Positions 5,026 through 18,004 of a stretch of 64,000 nucleotides of DNA are shown here, in pieces (positions within the stretch are counted from its first letter, which is position 1; each line of letters opens with the position of its first letter). The position numbers and the translations under genes were made by a program. The notes below the pieces were generated by a model, which did not search any database, was not told the DNA's origin, and saw only the letters and a list, made by a program, of their open reading frames with translations. Source of the stretch: Rickettsiales bacterium (GTDB taxonomy: Bacteria > Pseudomonadota > Alphaproteobacteria > Rickettsiales > JABCZZ01); contig DASTXE010000001.1 of assembly GCA_035765535.1 (NCBI GenBank), positions 224,322-288,321 on the forward strand. The letters are read 5' to 3'.

Positions 5026-6444
5026 ATGGCGACCAGTAAATCGAAAAATACCAAAAAAGAAGCGCAGGCGAATCCCATGTGGGGCGGGCAGTTTGCCAGC
5101 GGTCCGGCGGAAATCATGGCGCGCATCAACGCTTCCATTGATTTCGACAGTAAGCTTTATTCGCAGGATATCAAGGGGTCGATCGCACATTGTACGATGC
5201 TGGCCGAAACAGGGATTATCACAAAGAAAGAAGCCTCTGCAATCATCAAAGGGCTGGAATCCATCAAAGTGGAAATCGAGTCCGGTAAATTTATCTTCAA
5301 GCAGGAGCTGGAAGATATACACATGAATATCGAAGCCCGTCTGGCCGAATTGATAGGGGACGTTGCCGGAAAGCTCCACACGGCGCGATCACGCAACGAC
5401 CAGGCCGTGCTGGATTTCCGCATGTTCGTGAGGGATGCCGCGCAGGCGATAGAGGAACTGCTTAAAGGACTTCAGGCGGCCTTGATTGCCCGTGCAGAAG
5501 AATATTGCGACACGATCATGCCGGGCTTCACGCATCTGCAGAGCGCTCAGCCTGTAACGCTTGGCCACCATATGATGGCGTATGTCGAGATGTTTGGGCG
5601 CGATCGCGGCCGTGTCAACGATTTGCTGGCGCGCCTGGACGAATGCCCTCTCGGTGCAGCGGCGCTCGCCGGGACTTCGTTCCAGACAGATCGTCACATG
5701 ACGGCAAAACTGCTCGGCTTTGCCCGTCCGACTGCTAACTCACTGGATTCAGTTTCAGATCGCGACTTCGCCTTGGAATTCTTAAGCGCAGCCTCTATTT
5801 CCGCCGTGCATCTTTCACGTCTGGCGGAAGAATTTGTCATCTGGTCGAGCGCACCGTTCGCATTTATCCGCTTTTCTGATTTGTTCACGACCGGAAGCTC
5901 AATCATGCCGCAGAAGCGCAATCCGGATGCTGCCGAACTTGTGCGTGGTAAAACGGGCCGCATTGTTGGTTCGCTTATGTCATTGCTGACTACGCTTAAG
6001 GGACTGCCGCTTGCATATAACAAGGACATGCAGGAGGACAAGGAACCCGTGTTCGATGCTTCTTTGCAATGGCAGATGGTGTTGAGTGCCACGGCCGGAA
6101 TGGTAGAAGATTTCAAAGCTGATAAACAGCGCATGCACGCGCTGGCGGGAGATGGCTATTCCACCGCGACCGATCTTGCCGACTGGCTCGTGCGCACACA
6201 AAAAATGCCATTCCGTCAGGCACATCATGCCACGGCGCGTATTGTGAAAATTGCTGCCATGAAGAAATGCCAGCTTTCGGAACTGGCGCTGGAAGATATG
6301 AAGTCTATTGAACCGGCCATCACGAAGGATATTTACAATTACCTAACAGTAGAGAAATCCGTGGCGAGCCGCACAAGTTTCGGCGGTACATCGCCGGTAA
6401 GGGTAAAGGAAGCGATTAAAGCTGCAAAGAAGAAATACCTATGA
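5026..6444 (+). CDS. argH: argininosuccinate lyase
   Basis: Fumarate-lyase signature [12 protein letters not shown] and N-terminus WGGQFASGP. Start moved to ATG at 5026, because the tracked ORF start at 4921 overlaps the HIT gene. Confidence 0.95.
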
Positions 6445-11133: not shown

Positions 11134-11209
11134 GATCTGGTAGCTCAGTCGGTAGAGCACCTGACTTTTAATCAGGTTGTCGCGGGTTCGATTCCCGCCC
11201 AGATCACCA
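11134..11209 (+). tRNA. tRNA-Lys (anticodon UUU), CCA encoded
   Basis: Hand-folded cloverleaf: acceptor GATCTGG/CCAGATC, D stem GCTC/GAGC, anticodon stem CCTGA/TCAGG with loop CTTTTAA, T arm GCGGG-TTCGATT-CCCGC. Confidence 0.95.
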
Positions 11210-11219
11210 TTTTCCTCAA
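11164..11219. repeat. attL: left copy of the 56-bp direct repeat (3' part of tRNA-Lys plus 10 bp)
   Basis: Matches 17187-17242 with one mismatch, including 46 bp of perfect identity. The offset is 6023 bp. Confidence 0.85.
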
Positions 11220-12262
11220 GGATTTACCTCAATCAAATGGCAAAGCTGGTTAGCTGATTGTGCCGGAATCGTGTCTTGAAGCATGTTGTCTACGATCATT
11301 GCATGTTTCCCGAACTTCTCAGGAGCCAGATGTGCATAGCGTCTGACCATCTCGACAGACTCCCATGCCCCCATTTCCTGAATCACGTTCAGAGACACAC
11401 CACCTTGAGCTAACCAACTTGCCCAAGTATGCCGTAGATCATGCCAACGGAAGTCTTCAATTCCAGCTTCTTTTAATGCATTATACCAAGCTTTTGTTGT
11501 TACCTGACCAATAGGATTTCCCTTGTAGGTAAAAACCCGCTTTGGATGTTTACCCAACTGGTTCAGCAATACATCAATCGCCGTAGCATTAAGCGAAACG
11601 TGAATATCCCTTCCGCCCTTGGCTTGGTCTGCATATATCCACGCCACTTTACGCGGTATGTCTATCTGTGACCATTCCAATTCAAGCACGTTTGACTGGC
11701 GTAGTCCGGTAGCAAGTGAAAACCTTACTATATCGACCAGATGTTCTGGTAGTTTAGTAAGTAGTGTCAGCACTTGTTCCGGCGTTAGCCAACGGACACG
11801 CCTTTTAGGTTCAGGATAAAGCCGGATACGCGGAGCTTTATCAATCCATTCCCATTCAAAGGCAGCCCGGCGAAGGATAGAACGAATCAGAGCAAGAACA
11901 CGGTTTGCTGTAGCAGCACTGTTGTTCTCTTTCTTCTTAGCTCCAACCTCTGCAATCACGTCACGCGTTAGGTCTGTTAAAAGCTTGCCCCTAAAGAATT
12001 GTTGTAACCACCGTATAGTGTCCACATCCATCTGATGTGTTTTCTTATGCGAGGTTTCCTGCAACCATTTCAGGGCAGCTTCGTCCCAACTGCGTTTTGG
12101 CTTCTCTCCTAACTGCTCAGTCCGCCACGATTCGGCTTTTAGCTTGTCGTGGTATTCCTGAGCGGCTTTCTTGTCTTCTGTGCGAGCAGAGCATCTAATG
12201 CGCTGGCCGCTTGGTGTGGTGAAACTAATCCACCACGTGTTTCCGCGTTTAGTGAGTGACAT
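11216..12262 (-). CDS. int: tyrosine-type site-specific integrase (P4-like)
   Basis: C-terminal catalytic region HDLRHTWASWLAQGG...RYAH, and N-terminal SAM-like domain (GNTWWISF). Confidence 0.9.
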   Translation of the reverse strand: MSLTKRGNTWWISFTTPSGQRIRCSARTEDKKAAQEYHDKLKAESWRTEQLGEKPKRSWDEAALKWLQETSHKKTHQMDVDTIRWLQQFFRGKLLTDLTRDVIAEVGAKKKENNSAATANRVLALIRSILRRAAFEWEWIDKAPRIRLYPEPKRRVRWLTPEQVLTLLTKLPEHLVDIVRFSLATGLRQSNVLELEWSQIDIPRKVAWIYADQAKGGRDIHVSLNATAIDVLLNQLGKHPKRVFTYKGNPIGQVTTKAWYNALKEAGIEDFRWHDLRHTWASWLAQGGVSLNVIQEMGAWESVEMVRRYAHLAPEKFGKHAMIVDNMLQDTIPAQSANQLCHLIEVNP

Positions 12263-12468
12263 TCAGGGGTCTCCTTATACTGCACTCGCAACGCTTGCCA
12301 AGAAGGGTTATACCGGGAACGCAAGTATTCCGCAAGGTCGTCATCAATGAAGACCCAGCATTTGCCAGCCTTCGCACCGGGAATAACGCCTAACTTAGCT
12401 TTGCGCCGCACTTCTTCCGGGTGCATCTTGAGGAAGGTTGCAGCTTCTTTGAGGTTAAGCGTTATCAT
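12139..12468 (-). CDS. excisionase/AlpA-like helix-turn-helix DNA-binding protein
   Basis: N-terminus MITLNLKEAATFLKMHPEEVRRKAKLGVIPGAKAGKCWVFIDDDLAEYL fits the excisionase-family HTH pattern. The start at 12468 is coupled (TAATG) to the upstream ORF's stop. The 3' end overlaps int. Confidence 0.6.
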   Translation of the reverse strand: MITLNLKEAATFLKMHPEEVRRKAKLGVIPGAKAGKCWVFIDDDLAEYLRSRYNPSWQALRVQYKETPECHSLNAETRGGLVSPHQAASALDALLAQKTRKPLRNTTTS

Positions 12469-12698
12469 TAGTGATGCTCCGGATTGCATTGCCTGCAACG
12501 ACATTCATCTTGAGTCGTATCATGTGCTATACAAGGCTCAAACTTATGGCATGGATATAAGGCTTGCGTGCCAGCATTTATAAAATGAATTTGAAACAGT
12601 GTTTTATAATCGGTCGCATAACCAGCCTTCATGCATGTAAAGCAGGTACAAAGAACTTTTTTGCCTGAGGGAGTTGTATAAAAGGTGGTACTACTCAT
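12468..12698 (-). CDS. small Cys-rich protein (possible zinc-binding)
   Basis: 76 aa with clusters CTCFTC and CRCRQC. It overlaps the neighbouring genes at both ends, which suggests translational coupling. Confidence 0.45.
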   Translation of the reverse strand: MSSTTFYTTPSGKKVLCTCFTCMKAGYATDYKTLFQIHFINAGTQALYPCHKFEPCIAHDTTQDECRCRQCNPEHH

Positions 12699-13599
12699 GA
12701 CTACCCTCCACCGGAGAGAGTTTACGAGGAGAATTTAAAATCAGATGAAGGTAGATATCGTCATTGATCGTGGAAATATCAAAAGGCAAAACATCAAAAC
12801 TGCTTATTTCAGCCTGTTGTAATCGCAATGTAGATAAATCCAGCACAAATGGGCTACGGAAGGAATAACCAATGGTTTCATTATACCAGTAGCCAGCAAA
12901 GCGCTTTTTTACTCTATCACCAACCTCCGTTATTTTGCGAAGCCATGCATCCAATGACCAGTAATGTGCTATAGCCCTTGCATAAGATGAAATTCCAGAG
13001 AAACCATATGTTTTAGCACCCTTGGGATACTGACAATGTTTGCTTTCCCACTTACTGAGATATTTTGCCATGTAACTGGATGGATTTCTTACCCACTTCA
13101 CATTGCTAGAGCCATGCTTCCACCAACCTTGTTTATCAGGCATTGGCGGAGTGATACCGGAGGGTAGAAAGATAGCCAAATGGTAATGGGGTTTGCCCGA
13201 TCTCATAAGTTCCATTACCCAGACGACTTTTAACTTTATCCTACGGGTACGAGCCCAAGACCTATAACAGTCCTGAAGACGTTTTATGTCGTAAGGATGA
13301 TAAGCTGCATCCGGTCGATAAGTGAGAGTAACAAAGGCGCATTTACTTTTATCTTCCCCGCATTCAGAAGCGCACTGCAACAACACGTGAAAAACGATGC
13401 GCGAGATCTTACTAAGTCTTCGTCTTTGATTAAGTCCGTCTAAGACATTATCGGAGTATGATGTGGTAGAGGAGTGTGAGCTAGTTTTCATAAACTCTCT
13501 TTCCATAAGGTTTACCCAATCGCCGACCGGCGCATTGGTGAACCGCATTGAGAGAAATGATGAACAGCCCAAGCAGTTCCTATGTGGTAACTTTATCAC
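12691..13599 (-). CDS. HUH rolling-circle replication initiator (phiX174 gpA / P2 gpA-like)
   Basis: Motif I FVTLTY, motif II (HUH) PHYHLAIF, motif III with two tyrosines YMAKYLSK. The exact start is uncertain. Confidence 0.7.
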   Translation of the reverse strand: MIKLPHRNCLGCSSFLSMRFTNAPVGDWVNLMEREFMKTSSHSSTTSYSDNVLDGLNQRRRLSKISRIVFHVLLQCASECGEDKSKCAFVTLTYRPDAAYHPYDIKRLQDCYRSWARTRRIKLKVVWVMELMRSGKPHYHLAIFLPSGITPPMPDKQGWWKHGSSNVKWVRNPSSYMAKYLSKWESKHCQYPKGAKTYGFSGISSYARAIAHYWSLDAWLRKITEVGDRVKKRFAGYWYNETIGYSFRSPFVLDLSTLRLQQAEISSFDVLPFDISTINDDIYLHLILNSPRKLSPVEGSHE

Positions 13600-13652: not shown

Positions 13653-13991
13653 TTATTTTAATTTTTCAACCTGATTAGTGCGTATGCCCGGAATATGGCC
13701 GCTTACTGCTTTCCAGAAATTTGAAGCTTTTTGAGCGAGCTTCCATGCAACTGATTTATCTGATAATTCCCCAACTTCAGGTAAAACATCCCGGAATTCT
13801 ATACCAAGTATCTTTTCATACTTTCTAAGGGTTTTCTTATCGTGCATGAGTAATAAAGGTTTCCAGCCAACATGACGGCCAAAGACTAAGGCGCCTATAG
13901 CAGTCTCCATCTCCGTGCATATCCCGGAGAAGTCTTTAGCAGCGGCATCAATGATTTTTAATAGCTCTTTATCATTCATGGGGGGCTCCAT
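13653..13991 (-). CDS. hypothetical protein, first gene of the element's leftward operon
   Basis: 112-aa ORF on the same strand as Rep/Xis/Int. No motif recognised. Confidence 0.45.
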   Translation of the reverse strand: MEPPMNDKELLKIIDAAAKDFSGICTEMETAIGALVFGRHVGWKPLLLMHDKKTLRKYEKILGIEFRDVLPEVGELSDKSVAWKLAQKASNFWKAVSGHIPGIRTNQVEKLK

Positions 13992-14227
13992 AAGCGAGTA
14001 CCAACACCGCTTATACTACGTTATCAAGAAGCAAAAAGCTATTAAATGATACTAGAGGACACAAACGAGCAATAACACGAGCTGATGTATTACTTGTTAC
14101 AATAAGAGACAAGCCCAGCACTTGCTAGCCGCCGTCCTCACTCCGTTGCGGGCGGGGCGCAAGAAAGTACTGGCAATTTACTGATTGATAATTAATATTT
14201 GATACCTAAATAACTAATTGTAATTTT

Positions 14228-16300
14228 ATGACTGAAGAAAGAAATCCTCAACAGCATATAATTAATATCCTTAAGAATACCAAGGAACACCACCCTAATT
14301 TTGCATTGTTTTTAGGGGCCGGAGCTAGTGTTACTAGTGGCATTCCATCAGCTAAAACTATGATTGAGGATTGGAGAAAACAATATCAGGATCGTACGCC
14401 ATCGACTGACATTAAGAGCAAACCGTGGTATGAAGATGAACAAGAATATTCAACGCTTTTTGAATTATTGTACGATCAGCCTAGCCAGCGTAGAGAATAT
14501 ATAGAAAAATGTGTTAATAACGCTACCCCTTCTTGGGGATATATCTACCTAGTTAATCTATTACAAAAAGTTTTTAACACTGTTTTTACGACTAATTTCG
14601 ATGATTTGCTAAACGAGGCTTGTTATCTGTATTCAAACTCAACTAGGCCAATTGTATGCGCGCATGATTCAAGTATTTACTCAGTTAGAATAACTACCAA
14701 ACGCCCCAAAATAATAAAGCTTCATGGAGATTTTTTATTTGATAACATTAAGAACACCTCTCGAGAACTAGAAACTCTTGAAGAGAATATACGAAATAAA
14801 TTTAAACAATATGCGTCAGAATTTGGCTTAATTGTTATAGGTTATGCAGGCCATGATAGATCGGTCATGGATACGTTGAATGCTCTCTTACGTACAGAAA
14901 CAAACTTTCCTCATGGTGTTTATTGGTGCGTTAGGAAAGGCAGCAAACTAAGTAAGAAAGTGGAAGATTTAAACAGGTTTCCTCAATTTCATATTGTTGA
15001 GATTGAAGGCTTCGACCAGTTTTTTGCTGAATTGCATTCACAATTAGACATGTCTTTGCAAAAAGAAATGTCGGATCCTTATAATGCACTTACAGAAAGA
15101 TTAAATAATTTAATAAATAGTGCCAATATACCTGTTGGCTTAGAAAATAATCCTAATAAAAAATCACCAACACATTCAATTATTGCTTCAGATATTGCTA
15201 AATTAGTTGAGCAAATAAAAAGCAGCTTTGTAGGCGATTCTAATAAATCTCGGGAAGTACCTGCCTCTTCAGTAGCCCAACAAGCTTCACCACCATACCA
15301 ATTAATGGCTCAGCAACAATGGCAAAAAGGTGAAGTTACTGAAGCTAAGAAGACAATTATCAAGCAACTTGAGACGCAACCAACTATAAGCGCTTTTAAT
15401 ACAGCTTTTGAGCTATTAAATATCGTTTGGGATGATGTTACAGGGCAGCATGTTATAAAAGTTCTTAAGGAACGGGAAGATATTATAGCAAGTAATCCAA
15501 ATTGCGTGCACAATTTTGCGGTCAGCTTAATTAATACACAACAGTTTTCATATGCTGAAGAGGTTTTAAATATAGGCTTTGAAGTCGATAGAAGAAATAA
15601 GCAATCCTTATTTAACAAGGAATATTTTTATCTTAATAAAGCACAAATTTGTTTATGGTCTCAAAAGCCTATCGATCCGTCATTAAAAGAAAATATTGAA
15701 ATATTACAAAATAGTGCAAAAAAAGATATACGGCTAGGAGCTTCAATAATTCTTGGCCAGTATGAGGAAGCAAAAAATATTCTTCTTGCTTACAGCAAAA
15801 ATGAATTTATGAGCAAAATCGTCTGGCCTATTCTTTTATTTATTCCTGAGGATATTCAGGCAGAGATACTGAAAAAACAAATTTACTTATGCGATAATCC
15901 TAATAATGCATTTTATTATGCTATTTATTATATAAAATTTAAGAGATTCAAATTAGCTGAAACAGTGCTAAAAATAGCCTACGATTGTAATCAAAAAGGG
16001 CTTACCAAAGTTCCTTTGGATAATAATTATTATCTTCTGAATAAAGCTCAGATAAAATTACATCAAAGTAAAAAGTTACCACCAGCAGAAGTAGCCAAGA
16101 TACAAGAATTGCTGACTTCACCGGAACCACTTGTGCGGATAGGAGCTCATATAGTCCTTGGGCAGACTGAGCAAGCTGAAAATCTATATAAAGAGGTTAA
16201 AAATGAGGCAATCAGACAATGGCCTATTTTCCAGCTCTTAAATAAGAATATGCAAGCCCCAGTACCTAAAAAACCAGAATTAATTAAGAGTAACAAGTAA
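14228..16300 (+). CDS. SIR2-family (SIR2_2-like) NAD-binding domain protein with duplicated helical C-terminal region
   Basis: Motifs GAGAS (aa 30-34), TTNFD (N123), KLHGD (H166) and IGYAGHD. The C-terminal ~330 aa are helical, with two paralogous ~115-aa modules. Confidence 0.8.
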   Translation: MTEERNPQQHIINILKNTKEHHPNFALFLGAGASVTSGIPSAKTMIEDWRKQYQDRTPSTDIKSKPWYEDEQEYSTLFELLYDQPSQRREYIEKCVNNATPSWGYIYLVNLLQKVFNTVFTTNFDDLLNEACYLYSNSTRPIVCAHDSSIYSVRITTKRPKIIKLHGDFLFDNIKNTSRELETLEENIRNKFKQYASEFGLIVIGYAGHDRSVMDTLNALLRTETNFPHGVYWCVRKGSKLSKKVEDLNRFPQFHIVEIEGFDQFFAELHSQLDMSLQKEMSDPYNALTERLNNLINSANIPVGLENNPNKKSPTHSIIASDIAKLVEQIKSSFVGDSNKSREVPASSVAQQASPPYQLMAQQQWQKGEVTEAKKTIIKQLETQPTISAFNTAFELLNIVWDDVTGQHVIKVLKEREDIIASNPNCVHNFAVSLINTQQFSYAEEVLNIGFEVDRRNKQSLFNKEYFYLNKAQICLWSQKPIDPSLKENIEILQNSAKKDIRLGASIILGQYEEAKNILLAYSKNEFMSKIVWPILLFIPEDIQAEILKKQIYLCDNPNNAFYYAIYYIKFKRFKLAETVLKIAYDCNQKGLTKVPLDNNYYLLNKAQIKLHQSKKLPPAEVAKIQELLTSPEPLVRIGAHIVLGQTEQAENLYKEVKNEAIRQWPIFQLLNKNMQAPVPKKPELIKSNK

Positions 16301-16346
16301 ATCAATATTAGGAATAATTGTTAATAGAATAATAAAAAGACTTAAT

Positions 16347-17060
16347 ATGGCAGTAAAACTACGAAATAGCATAATAAAAAGCATATATAACCATCTTGAG
16401 ATATCAGGCTTTTCCCTCCGAGACTTCAAAATAAATACAGATCACGGACAATATTTGGCACATATTGTATTTATTCCAAAGCCCGAGTATGAGTTTATTA
16501 TTACAGAAAAGGACTATGCAGCTAAAAGTATTGCTAGCATTGTGAGTCTTACTACGCAGCCAGAAGATTTAAAATTAACTACAGTTGAATCACCGGGAGA
16601 ATACAAAACAAGAGAAGTAACAAAACATAGTACTATTCATGAATGCATCAATAGAATCCGTGACTGGTGCCAAAATATAAAAGAAGATTTAGCGACTAGA
16701 ATTCCTCTTCAAAAAGAGCTAGACGAATTTGAAATTGAAATTGAGCAGCGAATTAATGATGCCGCTGGCAATAGTCAGGAGCATTTTTCTGAGTCAGAAG
16801 TTAATAATTTAAATAATAAATTAGATAATTTCTTGGCAAAATTTGAAGAGCTTGAGAAAGCCAAAACAATTACAGAAAAAGAACTAAAAGAAATAAAAGC
16901 AGAACTGGAAAGATTAAAACGCACACTGCCTATGTATCAAAAAGATATTTGGTACAAGACTGCAGGCCATTCTCTTTTAGATATGACAAAAAAAGTATTT
17001 AAAACAAAGGAAGGAAGAGAATTTCTTTTTGACGCAGCAAAAAAATTCTTTCTTGAATAG
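16347..17060 (+). CDS. hypothetical protein with C-terminal coiled coil, partner of the SIR2 gene
   Basis: 237-aa ORF lying 46 nt downstream on the same strand with the same AT-rich composition. Heptad-like segment KFEELEKAKTITEKELKEIKAELERLKRTL. Confidence 0.6.
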   Translation: MAVKLRNSIIKSIYNHLEISGFSLRDFKINTDHGQYLAHIVFIPKPEYEFIITEKDYAAKSIASIVSLTTQPEDLKLTTVESPGEYKTREVTKHSTIHECINRIRDWCQNIKEDLATRIPLQKELDEFEIEIEQRINDAAGNSQEHFSESEVNNLNNKLDNFLAKFEELEKAKTITEKELKEIKAELERLKRTLPMYQKDIWYKTAGHSLLDMTKKVFKTKEGREFLFDAAKKFFLE

Positions 17061-17186
17061 ACGTGCCAATCTTGTGTCATCGCATTATTAAAAATATAAT
17101 GTTTGATATGTATTTGAGATTGGAATGGCACACTGGCAAGCGTCACAAGTATATGAATAATAATAAATATAGGTTTTATTCTTCAA

Positions 17187-17242
17187 ACTTTTAATCAGGT
17201 TGTCGCGGGTTCGATTCCCGCCCAGATCACCACTTTCCTCAA
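17187..17242. repeat. attR: right copy of the direct repeat (partial tRNA-Lys 3' end)
   Basis: 55 of 56 bp identical to 11164-11219. It lacks the 5' half of the tRNA. Confidence 0.85.
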
Positions 17243-17281
17243 TCTCCATAGTTCAGCTTCCTTCATCTAGAAAGATTATCA

Positions 17282-18004
17282 ATGAATAATGATTCCATAA
17301 GTTATGAACAAATTTTAGTTGAAGTTGAGGATGTATTAAGAACAGCACCGGACAAAGCAACATTTCGCCATGAAACAAATGAAAATTACCAATGGTTAGG
17401 GCGGGCGGCTGCTGTAATCGAGGTATGGAATCCTAATAAGCTTGTACAACTGAGAACAATAATGGGATTATATCAGAGTCCTATGGGAGCTCCATCTATA
17501 CAAGGATTTCGAGAAATTATGGTGCTCTTGCATCAAGCAAGAAGTGATCTGCGTATGCGAACTACAGGTCCAACTAATGTAGCTATTGGACAAGGACAGG
17601 TGTTTGAATATTTTGACGAAATCCGGAAGAATATTGAATTAGCAACACAGGAAGTGTTTTTTATTGATCCGTATCTTGATGCCGATTTTGTTTCGCGCTA
17701 CCTCCCACTTATAAAAACTGGTGTTAATGTTAAGCTTCTTACTGCCAGAAACAAACTTACAACTCTGCTACCAGCGATCGATTTATTTATGCAGCAGCAT
17801 GGACATGCAATCGGTGTACGTTCAACGACAGGATTGCATGATAGATTTCTGTTCATCGATAAAGGTAGTTGTTATCTTTCGGGGGCTTCATTTAAGGATG
17901 GTGCGAAAAACGCTGGAACAATAATTACACAAATTACTGATGGGTTTACTTCTATGTGGAATACATATGATAAGCTTTGGAGCGCTGCAAATATAGAAAG
18001 GTAA
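17282..18004 (+). CDS. PLD-superfamily / MIT_C-like domain protein
   Basis: The C-terminal half carries FFIDPYL ... GLHDRFLFIDKGSCYLSGASFKDG. This resembles the DPY/HDR variant of the phospholipase D-like fold. The N-terminal ~115 aa are unassigned, and the gene is AT-rich. Confidence 0.45.
   Translation: MNNDSISYEQILVEVEDVLRTAPDKATFRHETNENYQWLGRAAAVIEVWNPNKLVQLRTIMGLYQSPMGAPSIQGFREIMVLLHQARSDLRMRTTGPTNVAIGQGQVFEYFDEIRKNIELATQEVFFIDPYLDADFVSRYLPLIKTGVNVKLLTARNKLTTLLPAIDLFMQQHGHAIGVRSTTGLHDRFLFIDKGSCYLSGASFKDGAKNAGTIITQITDGFTSMWNTYDKLWSAANIER

Follow-up and report, generated by a model that had tools for sequence, protein, structure and literature searches.

A candidate stand-alone SIR2-TPR protein and an adjacent member of an uncharacterised family carried by a tRNA-Lys integrative element in a Rickettsiales bacterium

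Do two neighbouring genes on a small mobile element make up one defence system, or do they merely share a carrier? This question is raised by a 64,000-nucleotide stretch of the genome of a Rickettsiales bacterium (GenBank assembly GCA_035765535.1, contig DASTXE010000001.1, positions 224,322 to 288,321 of the forward strand; the whole stretch is referred to as the window), in which an element integrated at a tRNA-Lys gene carries two open reading frames (ORFs), named ORF1 and ORF2 here. An earlier interpretation made from the sequence without database searches (the sequence-only reading) had proposed that the pair forms an undescribed two-gene SIR2 defence module. The current analysis instead points to an element that probably carries two functionally independent, merely adjacent cargo genes, with ORF1 as a candidate stand-alone SIR2-TPR sensor-NADase. 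The two genes are as follows:

14228 to 16300, plus strand: ORF1, 690-aa SIR2-TPR protein, candidate stand-alone sensor-NADase (ORF list, Pfam, PADLOC, PDB, AlphaFold2 (AF2), Foldseek)
16347 to 17060, plus strand: ORF2, 237-aa member of an uncharacterised stand-alone family, probable independent cargo (ORF list, profile searches, AF2)

Both genes lie inside the attachment (att) sites of the element, are co-oriented and are separated by 46 nt, with a GC content of 34% (ORF1) and 33% (ORF2) compared to 54-55% in the flanks. These coordinates and this composition agree with the sequence-only reading, which had described two AT-rich ORFs in this arrangement without a visible Shine-Dalgarno sequence; a scan of the 25 nt upstream of each start likewise found no GGAG, AGGA or GAGG.

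Reciprocal linkage of the two families

Linkage was assessed in 126 ORF1-family loci (80 from genomes, 41 from IMG/VR, 3 holding the closest full-length homologue and 2 from GenBank Vibrio phage records) and in 21 ORF2-family loci. Hidden Markov model (HMM) and tblastn searches found ORF2 relatives in none of the 126 ORF1-family loci, and the ORF1 HMM found a SIR2 protein in none of the 21 ORF2-family loci, while the window's own ORF2, serving as a positive control, was recovered by the search. The comparison applies at the level of families, the closest relatives in the databases searched being at most 50% (ORF1) and at most 60% (ORF2) identical to the genes of the window. Because reciprocal linkage is absent, a conserved two-gene system is not supported; the sequence-only reading had itself named a lack of conserved linkage between the homologues as evidence against its module, and the module is not retained.

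It could nevertheless be argued that the two genes constitute one abortive-infection system, in which the SIR2-TPR NADase is assisted by the coiled-coil protein ORF2 as its accessory sensor, scaffold or regulator. In addition to the shared orientation, short gap and common AT content, no terminator is predicted between the genes, and ORF2-family genes are often located ~100-140 nt 3' of varied genes, for example those encoding a weak Nuc_deoxyrib_tr protein (locus L001) or a DUF4145 protein (locus L011), so that a swappable effector with a constant partner is conceivable. However, the genes upstream of ORF2 relatives show no similarity to one another, the partner is absent from every locus in both sets, and each family is also found by itself, ORF2 relatives in single integron cassettes or flanked by housekeeping genes and ORF1 relatives in prophage immunity regions. 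A two-gene system is consequently considered unlikely.

Domains of ORF1 and comparison with named SIR2 systems

Four parts of ORF1 are referred to below:

14228 to 15082, plus strand: N-terminal SIR2 domain, aa 1-285 (Pfam SIR2_2; PDB SIR2-APAZ)
15296 to 16246, plus strand: C-terminal TPR-like alpha-solenoid, presumed sensor, aa ~357-673 (AF2, Foldseek)
15530 to 15877, plus strand: repeat unit 1, aa 435-550 (local self-alignment score 160)
15932 to 16273, plus strand: repeat unit 2, aa 569-682 (self-alignment; homologue alignment)

The N-terminal domain matches Pfam SIR2_2 with a score above the gathering threshold (E=8.7e-15) and contains the motif GAGAS (aa 30-34), N123 (nt 14594-14596) and H166 (nt 14723-14725), placed where the sequence-only reading had put them; G30, A31, G32 and S34 of this motif, N123 and H166 are invariant across the 15 homologues aligned. 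The only solved structures related to ORF1 by sequence are the SIR2-APAZ chains 8in8 and 8jkz, identified as SPARSA chains through PMC10474274 and PMC10781750, which match over ~250 residues (E=2e-27 for the single sequence, aa 25-272; 2.4e-33 for the profile) and in which the catalytic Asn and His align with those of ORF1. No chain of DSR2, ThsA, SIR2-HerA or Avs5 was found among the PDB matches (E<=1 for the single sequence; E<=0.01 for the profile). Matches to the Aga_SIR2 models of PADLOC reach 3.3e-70 and are confined to aa ~20-290. The longest PADLOC alignment to ORF1, that of a prokaryotic Argonaute (pAgo) fusion model, extends to residue 392, while nearly all others end near the end of the SIR2 domain, and in nine relatives of differing architectures the PADLOC matches likewise stop around this domain. 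A zinc ribbon of CxxC type is not present, as ORF1 contains no CxxC and its SIR2 part just four scattered Cys residues, and neither a Walker A motif nor a transmembrane segment was found in the protein. By sequence comparison, the ORF1 domain is of the defence-type SIR2_2 subfamily 'SIRim' and is closest to the pAgo-associated SIR2 of SPARSA; this subfamily has been described as the immune one and as enriched near defence systems (preprint 10.1101/2024.09.18.613514).

The remainder of the protein had been read from the sequence as all-helical and internally duplicated, and both features hold. The structure prediction and Foldseek search proposed for it gave a confident AF2 model (residues 285-690, 48-sequence alignment; pLDDT 87.9, pTM 0.84) with helices throughout, for which the top Foldseek matches in the PDB are all TPR proteins (BBS4/8, Tom71, CTPR, OGT, PEX5), with no DSR2 chain among the top 50. 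This TPR solenoid is joined to the SIR2 domain by a ~70-aa linker. Residues 435-550 and 569-682 form a tandem duplication of a ~115-aa unit (36% identity, z=25 against shuffles); the second unit is absent from most homologues, which have 550-590 aa, and is present in P0004 (693 aa) and P0016 (682 aa), the sole carriers among the 15 aligned homologues. Identity among homologues amounts to 62-70% in the SIR2 part, across phyla, but only 16-33% in the TPR part, a contrast that is commonly seen where a conserved effector is fused to a sensor that diversifies.

In overall architecture, ORF1 resembles DSR2, which is also a single polypeptide with an N-terminal SIR2 domain and a C-terminal helical-repeat sensor, although the likeness is one of architectural analogy alone. 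According to PMC11850899, the alpha-solenoid C-terminal sensor of DSR2 binds the phage tail tube protein, which leads to NAD+ depletion. ORF1 differs from DSR2 in lacking a MID domain and in having a SIR2 domain that belongs to the pAgo-associated clade. Membership in DSR1/DSR2 by sequence was rejected, as no Dsr model is among the PADLOC matches of ORF1 at E<=0.1 and no DSR2 chain was matched in the PDB. The proteins also differ in length, DSR2 having ~1,000 aa compared to 690 aa in ORF1 and typically ~555 aa in its family.

No known domain is closer to that of ORF1 than the SIR2 domain of SPARSA (8in8/8jkz; Aga_SIR2 models). However, ORF1 contains a TPR solenoid in the place of APAZ and is not accompanied by a pAgo gene; therefore, its activation cannot depend on guide and target nucleic acids as it does in SPARSA. 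An APAZ domain was rejected because the Aga_SIR2-PNTD1-PNTD2 and pAgo-fusion models align mainly over SIR2 (the first ~300-400 profile positions) and the C-terminus is TPR, and an adjacent short pAgo because ORF2, the sole cargo neighbour, is a 237-aa protein with no pAgo or Piwi match in Pfam or PADLOC. It has to be considered, in addition, that ORF1 could be a decayed SPARSA component, namely a SIR2-APAZ protein left without its short pAgo partner. Although SIR2 proteins associated with pAgo give the best matches in PADLOC and the PDB and a Vibrio homologue was labelled 'pAgo__SIR2APAZ' by its depositors (PQ189367.1), the 14-kb element that carries this homologue contains no pAgo, the pAgo-type matches to ORF1 end with the SIR2 domain at ~aa 290, no PIWI/pAgo gene is found beside ORF1, and the ORF1 family is large with conserved length and architecture. 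Moreover, APAZ is a mixed alpha/beta domain, while the C-terminus of ORF1 is an all-alpha TPR solenoid. Decay from SPARSA is thus extremely improbable. HMM-based defence annotation sees the ORF1 family just as an orphan SPARSA component.

Further named systems were compared and rejected. For Thoeris, weak ThsA matches are confined to the SIR2 N-terminus (4e-6, aa 3-170), and neither ORF has a SLOG, Macro or TIR match. For SIR2-HerA, the HerA matches of ORF2 (E=0.007-0.05) come from its coiled-coil region, where SMC and further noise matches of coiled-coil type are also found, and ORF2 is a protein of only 237 aa that lacks a Walker A motif. For Avs/SIR2-STAND, ORF1 has no NTPase match in Pfam, no Walker A motif and just a linker of ~70 residues between SIR2 and TPR. 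PANGU has been described as a nucleoid-associated protein sensor (YejK-like partner) with an effector (preprint 10.64898/2026.04.06.716658); ORF2 and 54 members of its family contain neither a nucleoid-associated-protein domain nor any other real Pfam domain, only coiled-coil noise. The PADLOC candidate PDC-S65 is, like ORF1, a single-gene SIR2 candidate, and ORF1 matches its model PDLC05061 with E=3e-33 over aa 21-386; however, ORF1 covers only positions 29-400 of the 592 in this profile, and its full-length relatives are equally restricted to the N-terminal part.

No PADLOC v2 model matched ORF1 over its full length in the run that the sequence-only reading had recommended, and the SLOG, TIR, HerA, STAND NTPase, APAZ/pAgo and Macro modules that it had not seen in ORF1 are indeed absent from the protein. 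Its statement that the protein fits no known SIR2 system can therefore be kept with regard to full-length matches, but requires qualification in that the SIR2 domain is placed closest to SPARSA. In the literature searched, no paper naming a single-gene SIR2-TPR system and no mention of PDC-S65 were found; for SIR2, TPR and defence together, the papers found were just those on DSR2, Avs5, SAMD9, FAM118 and SIRim. The legend of a phylogeny in PMC12700824 lists TPR among the domains fused to SIR2_2. ORF1 is a candidate single-gene defence protein in which a SIR2 effector is combined with a repeat sensor; its large family is not placed in any named system, and the protein is not categorically new.

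If ORF1 works in the manner of DSR2 and other defence proteins with a SIR2 domain, its TPR solenoid would bind a protein or peptide made by the phage, and this binding could free the SIR2 domain from autoinhibition or cause it to oligomerise. Once activated, the SIR2 domain would hydrolyse NAD+ and deplete it, so that the infection would be aborted and both the host and the element protected. The NAD+ hydrolysis, the phage-made trigger and the abortive outcome are thus all proposed for ORF1 from its better-known counterparts. In the copy in the window, the solenoid has been lengthened by tandem duplication of one of its units.

Genomic settings of ORF1 and ORF2 relatives

The ORF1 family comprises more than 2,130 homologues and extends across many bacterial phyla, at least one archaeal metagenome-assembled genome and prophages. 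No recurrent neighbour was identified in 11 full-length genome loci, as judged from gene size, gene order and pooled family counts. P0004, the closest homologue with the duplication, belongs to an integrase island, where a convergent SNase gene comes next. One relative adjoins the integrase of the 14-kb Vibrio Vinavirales prophage element in PQ189367.1 (L105 1354-3228), another is located between CI and Int of a 186-like Vibrio prophage, co-oriented with and downstream of CI (L106 5842-8839), and a third is found directly 3' of a CI-type repressor (HTH_3 + Peptidase_S24) in an E. coli lambdoid prophage, again co-oriented (L154 3640-6429) and followed by kilR, gam and recT. A comparison with 5,426 complete E. 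coli genomes gave no match to the E. coli homologue. The family is present on 41 IMG/VR contigs, and the neighbours on the 14 that were scanned belong to the lambdoid immunity and early genes (CI, CII, YdaS/T, O/P, N, Gam, RecT, RusA). ORF1 relatives travel as single cargo genes.

The slot just 3' of a CI-type repressor is typical of genes expressed in lysogens, and in the E. coli lambdoid prophage it corresponds to the position of rexAB. In this respect, the ORF1 relatives located directly 3' of CI-type repressors resemble the cI-proximal exclusion genes of the lambda rexAB type, just as an ORF2 relative between gpA and a portal gene resembles the old/tin hotspot cargo of P2. By sequence, however, they are unrelated to Rex, Old and Tin, and the likeness is limited to genomic position and presumed role.

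These settings also bear on the proposal that ORF1 has no immune role. It could instead stabilise the element as an addiction toxin, or it could be a regulatory sirtuin (a deacylase or ADP-ribosyltransferase) whose target, a protein of the host or of the element, is brought in by the TPR region. TPR domains are general protein-binding modules, and many chromosomal relatives of ORF1 are found amid housekeeping genes with few defence neighbours, as such a role would allow. On the other hand, the nearest relative of the SIR2_2 'SIRim' domain is the SPARSA NADase; the Cys4 zinc ribbon found in canonical sirtuins is missing, and the domain belongs to the subfamily enriched near defence systems (10.1101/2024.09.18.613514). 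Relatives of ORF1 also occupy moron and immunity positions in prophages, and no candidate antitoxin conserved beside the family was found. A non-immune role is accordingly judged improbable.

A distinct class of proteins of ~850-890 aa (loci L040-L094; e.g., L047 5941-8523 and L068 5953-8571) contains the same SIR2 domain with 45-53% identity and was observed in Bacteroides, Pseudomonas, Acinetobacter, Stenotrophomonas, Marinobacter and others. PADLOC covers the SIR2 part alone in the two members scanned, and a partner gene is not evident for most of the class, which appears to be another unnamed SIR2 architecture.

The sequence-only reading had described ORF2 as a protein with an unassignable N-terminal half followed by a strongly heptad-like coiled coil. 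The first part of this description stands, while the coiled coil was modelled differently: in the AF2 model (pLDDT 78.5, pTM 0.45), an alpha/beta domain of a helix plus five strands (aa 1-95) is followed by six helices, which look like helical hairpins and not one long coiled coil. Foldseek matches were non-significant in both the PDB (best E 0.59; Pur-alpha, cystatin, DnaK lid) and BFVD (best E 0.026; an uncharacterised phage protein), and neither a transmembrane segment nor a P-loop (Walker A) was found in ORF2. Profile searches with 54 family members against Pfam, PHROGs and the PDB returned nothing but coiled-coil noise, and the family is without a relative in PADLOC as well.

Relatives of ORF2 numbered 14 by single-sequence search, 37 by profile search and 747 cluster representatives by exhaustive profile search. 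The best 150 of these 747 are mostly ~220-245 aa long and match over their full length without fused domains, with a few truncated. In a P2-like prophage, one relative occupies the interval from gpA to the portal gene, with ParDE, UmuDC and Bro-N as neighbours; this gpA-gpQ interval is the anti-phage hotspot of P2 (Rousset 2022, PMC9122126). Another lies after a Dam methyltransferase at the end of a P2-like tail module, which is also the prophage end. A 242-aa homologue (5396-6124) forms a single-ORF cassette (L100 5252-6263) on a Vibrio sp. Vb2354 contig, where it is flanked by Vibrio cholerae repeat (VCR)/attC-type repeats in a chromosomal integron array of at least 18 repeats that also contains a ParE toxin cassette. 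Other relatives adjoin YoeB/YefM or lie between chorismate synthase and ferrochelatase, and locus L001 (2282-4765) holds two tandem paralogues, 25% identical and near Fic/RhuM, which are preceded by a 252-aa protein with a weak nucleoside-deoxyribosyltransferase match and by the Fic/RhuM gene. ORF2 was not found in GenBank phages by tblastn or in IMG/VR by a pattern scan, for which the broader family alignment is too diverged. The family consists of ~230-aa soluble proteins moving as a one-gene unit among prophage hotspots, integron cassettes and small islands. From these locations, the best guess is that ORF2 has an independent accessory or defence role directed against phages or other mobile genetic elements (MGEs). 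It is possible, though doubtful, that the family represents a new stand-alone anti-phage or anti-MGE class, which would make the element a mini defence island of two systems, the other being the unnamed SIR2-TPR NADase. In a weaker form of this possibility, ORF2 would modulate the SIR2-TPR protein, having taken on such a role in this element alone.

Several points weigh against two independent cargo genes with ORF1 as a stand-alone sensor-NADase. Given their shared orientation, the 46-nt gap and the lack of a predicted terminator, ORF1 and ORF2 are probably co-transcribed, and local functional coupling may exist in this one element. With no relative above 50% (ORF1) or 60% (ORF2) identity, conservation of the pair over short evolutionary distances is outside the range that the linkage analysis covers. 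The profile comparison used PADLOC-DB v2.0.0 (2023), from which a more recently named system could be missing. In addition, chromosomal ORF1 relatives in the 11 genomes are situated mostly among housekeeping genes, with type I and IIG restriction-modification, MADS and DISARM-type components as their few defence neighbours; the defence-island signal, which the sequence-only reading had proposed to check, is weak and does not demonstrate enrichment.

The carrier element and implications for SIR2 proteins

Apart from ORF1 and ORF2, the element and its integration site comprise the following features:

11134 to 11209, plus strand: tRNA-Lys(ttt), integration target (ARAGORN)
11164 to 11219, no strand: attL, 56-nt repeat over the 3' part of tRNA-Lys (repeat search)
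11216 to 12262, minus strand: tyrosine integrase (Pfam Phage_integrase 2.2e-32)
12139 to 12504, minus strand: HTH_17 (AlpA/excisionase-type) DNA-binding protein (Pfam HTH_17 5.8e-9)
12468 to 12698, minus strand: 76-aa ORF (ORF list)
12691 to 13599, minus strand: rolling-circle replication initiator (Rep), inovirus gpII type (Pfam REP_ORF2-G2P 6.8e-28)
13653 to 13991, minus strand: 112-aa ORF, divergent from ORF1 (ORF list)
17187 to 17242, no strand: attR, second copy of the 56-nt repeat, 98% identical (repeat search)

The two copies of the direct repeat differ by one mismatch, correspond to the 3' part of tRNA-Lys(ttt) and are spaced 6,023 bp apart; their exact 26-nt core, the 3' end of the tRNA, occurs twice in the window compared to zero occurrences expected by chance. 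These repeats delimit an integrated element of 6,023 bp whose integration target is tRNA-Lys, and since ORF1 and ORF2 lie between them, the view that both genes are cargo of a small integrative element is confirmed. The GC content falls from 0.54-0.58 in the flanks to 0.29-0.39 over 14000-18000. The element encodes the integrase, the AlpA-like helix-turn-helix protein and the inovirus-type Rep, which is 28-29% identical to gpII of the Xanthomonas filamentous phages Lf, Cf1c and XacF1, while coat, assembly and virion genes are absent; the 112-aa ORF had no matches in Pfam, PADLOC or NCBIfam. In its gene content, the element resembles a satellite-like or degenerate inovirus-derived integrative element that serves as a cargo carrier.

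Within the att sites, ORF1 and ORF2 are the only non-maintenance genes, as the sequence-only reading had stated, with the correction that a third AT-rich gene begins 40 nt beyond attR. This gene (17282-18004, plus strand; GC 0.39) is outside the element and encodes a 240-aa protein that matches the PADLOC candidate PDC-S05 (1.3e-16) and NCBIfam VPA1262_N_dom (9e-12) and contains a PLD-like HxR(4)D motif (HDRFLFID, aa 186); no relative was found for it in the PDB. An earlier insertion at this tRNA-Lys hotspot may have left it behind as a remnant; alternatively, it may be a candidate defence gene in its own right.

The pair described here indicates that finding genes side by side in a small mobile element says little about whether they form a multi-gene system. 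The ORF2 family constitutes a separate lead, since this cassette gene, itself uncharacterised, turns up repeatedly in known anti-phage hotspots. If active, proteins of the ORF1 type would be compact (~555-690 aa), widespread SIR2 sensor-NADases, in which current tools see an orphan "SIR2-APAZ" fragment and consequently call no system. If this interpretation is true, the family would represent a SPARSA-type effector re-wired from the sensing of nucleic acids to, presumably, the sensing of proteins, and its fast-evolving, duplication-prone TPR region would provide a tractable model for the evolution of trigger specificity.

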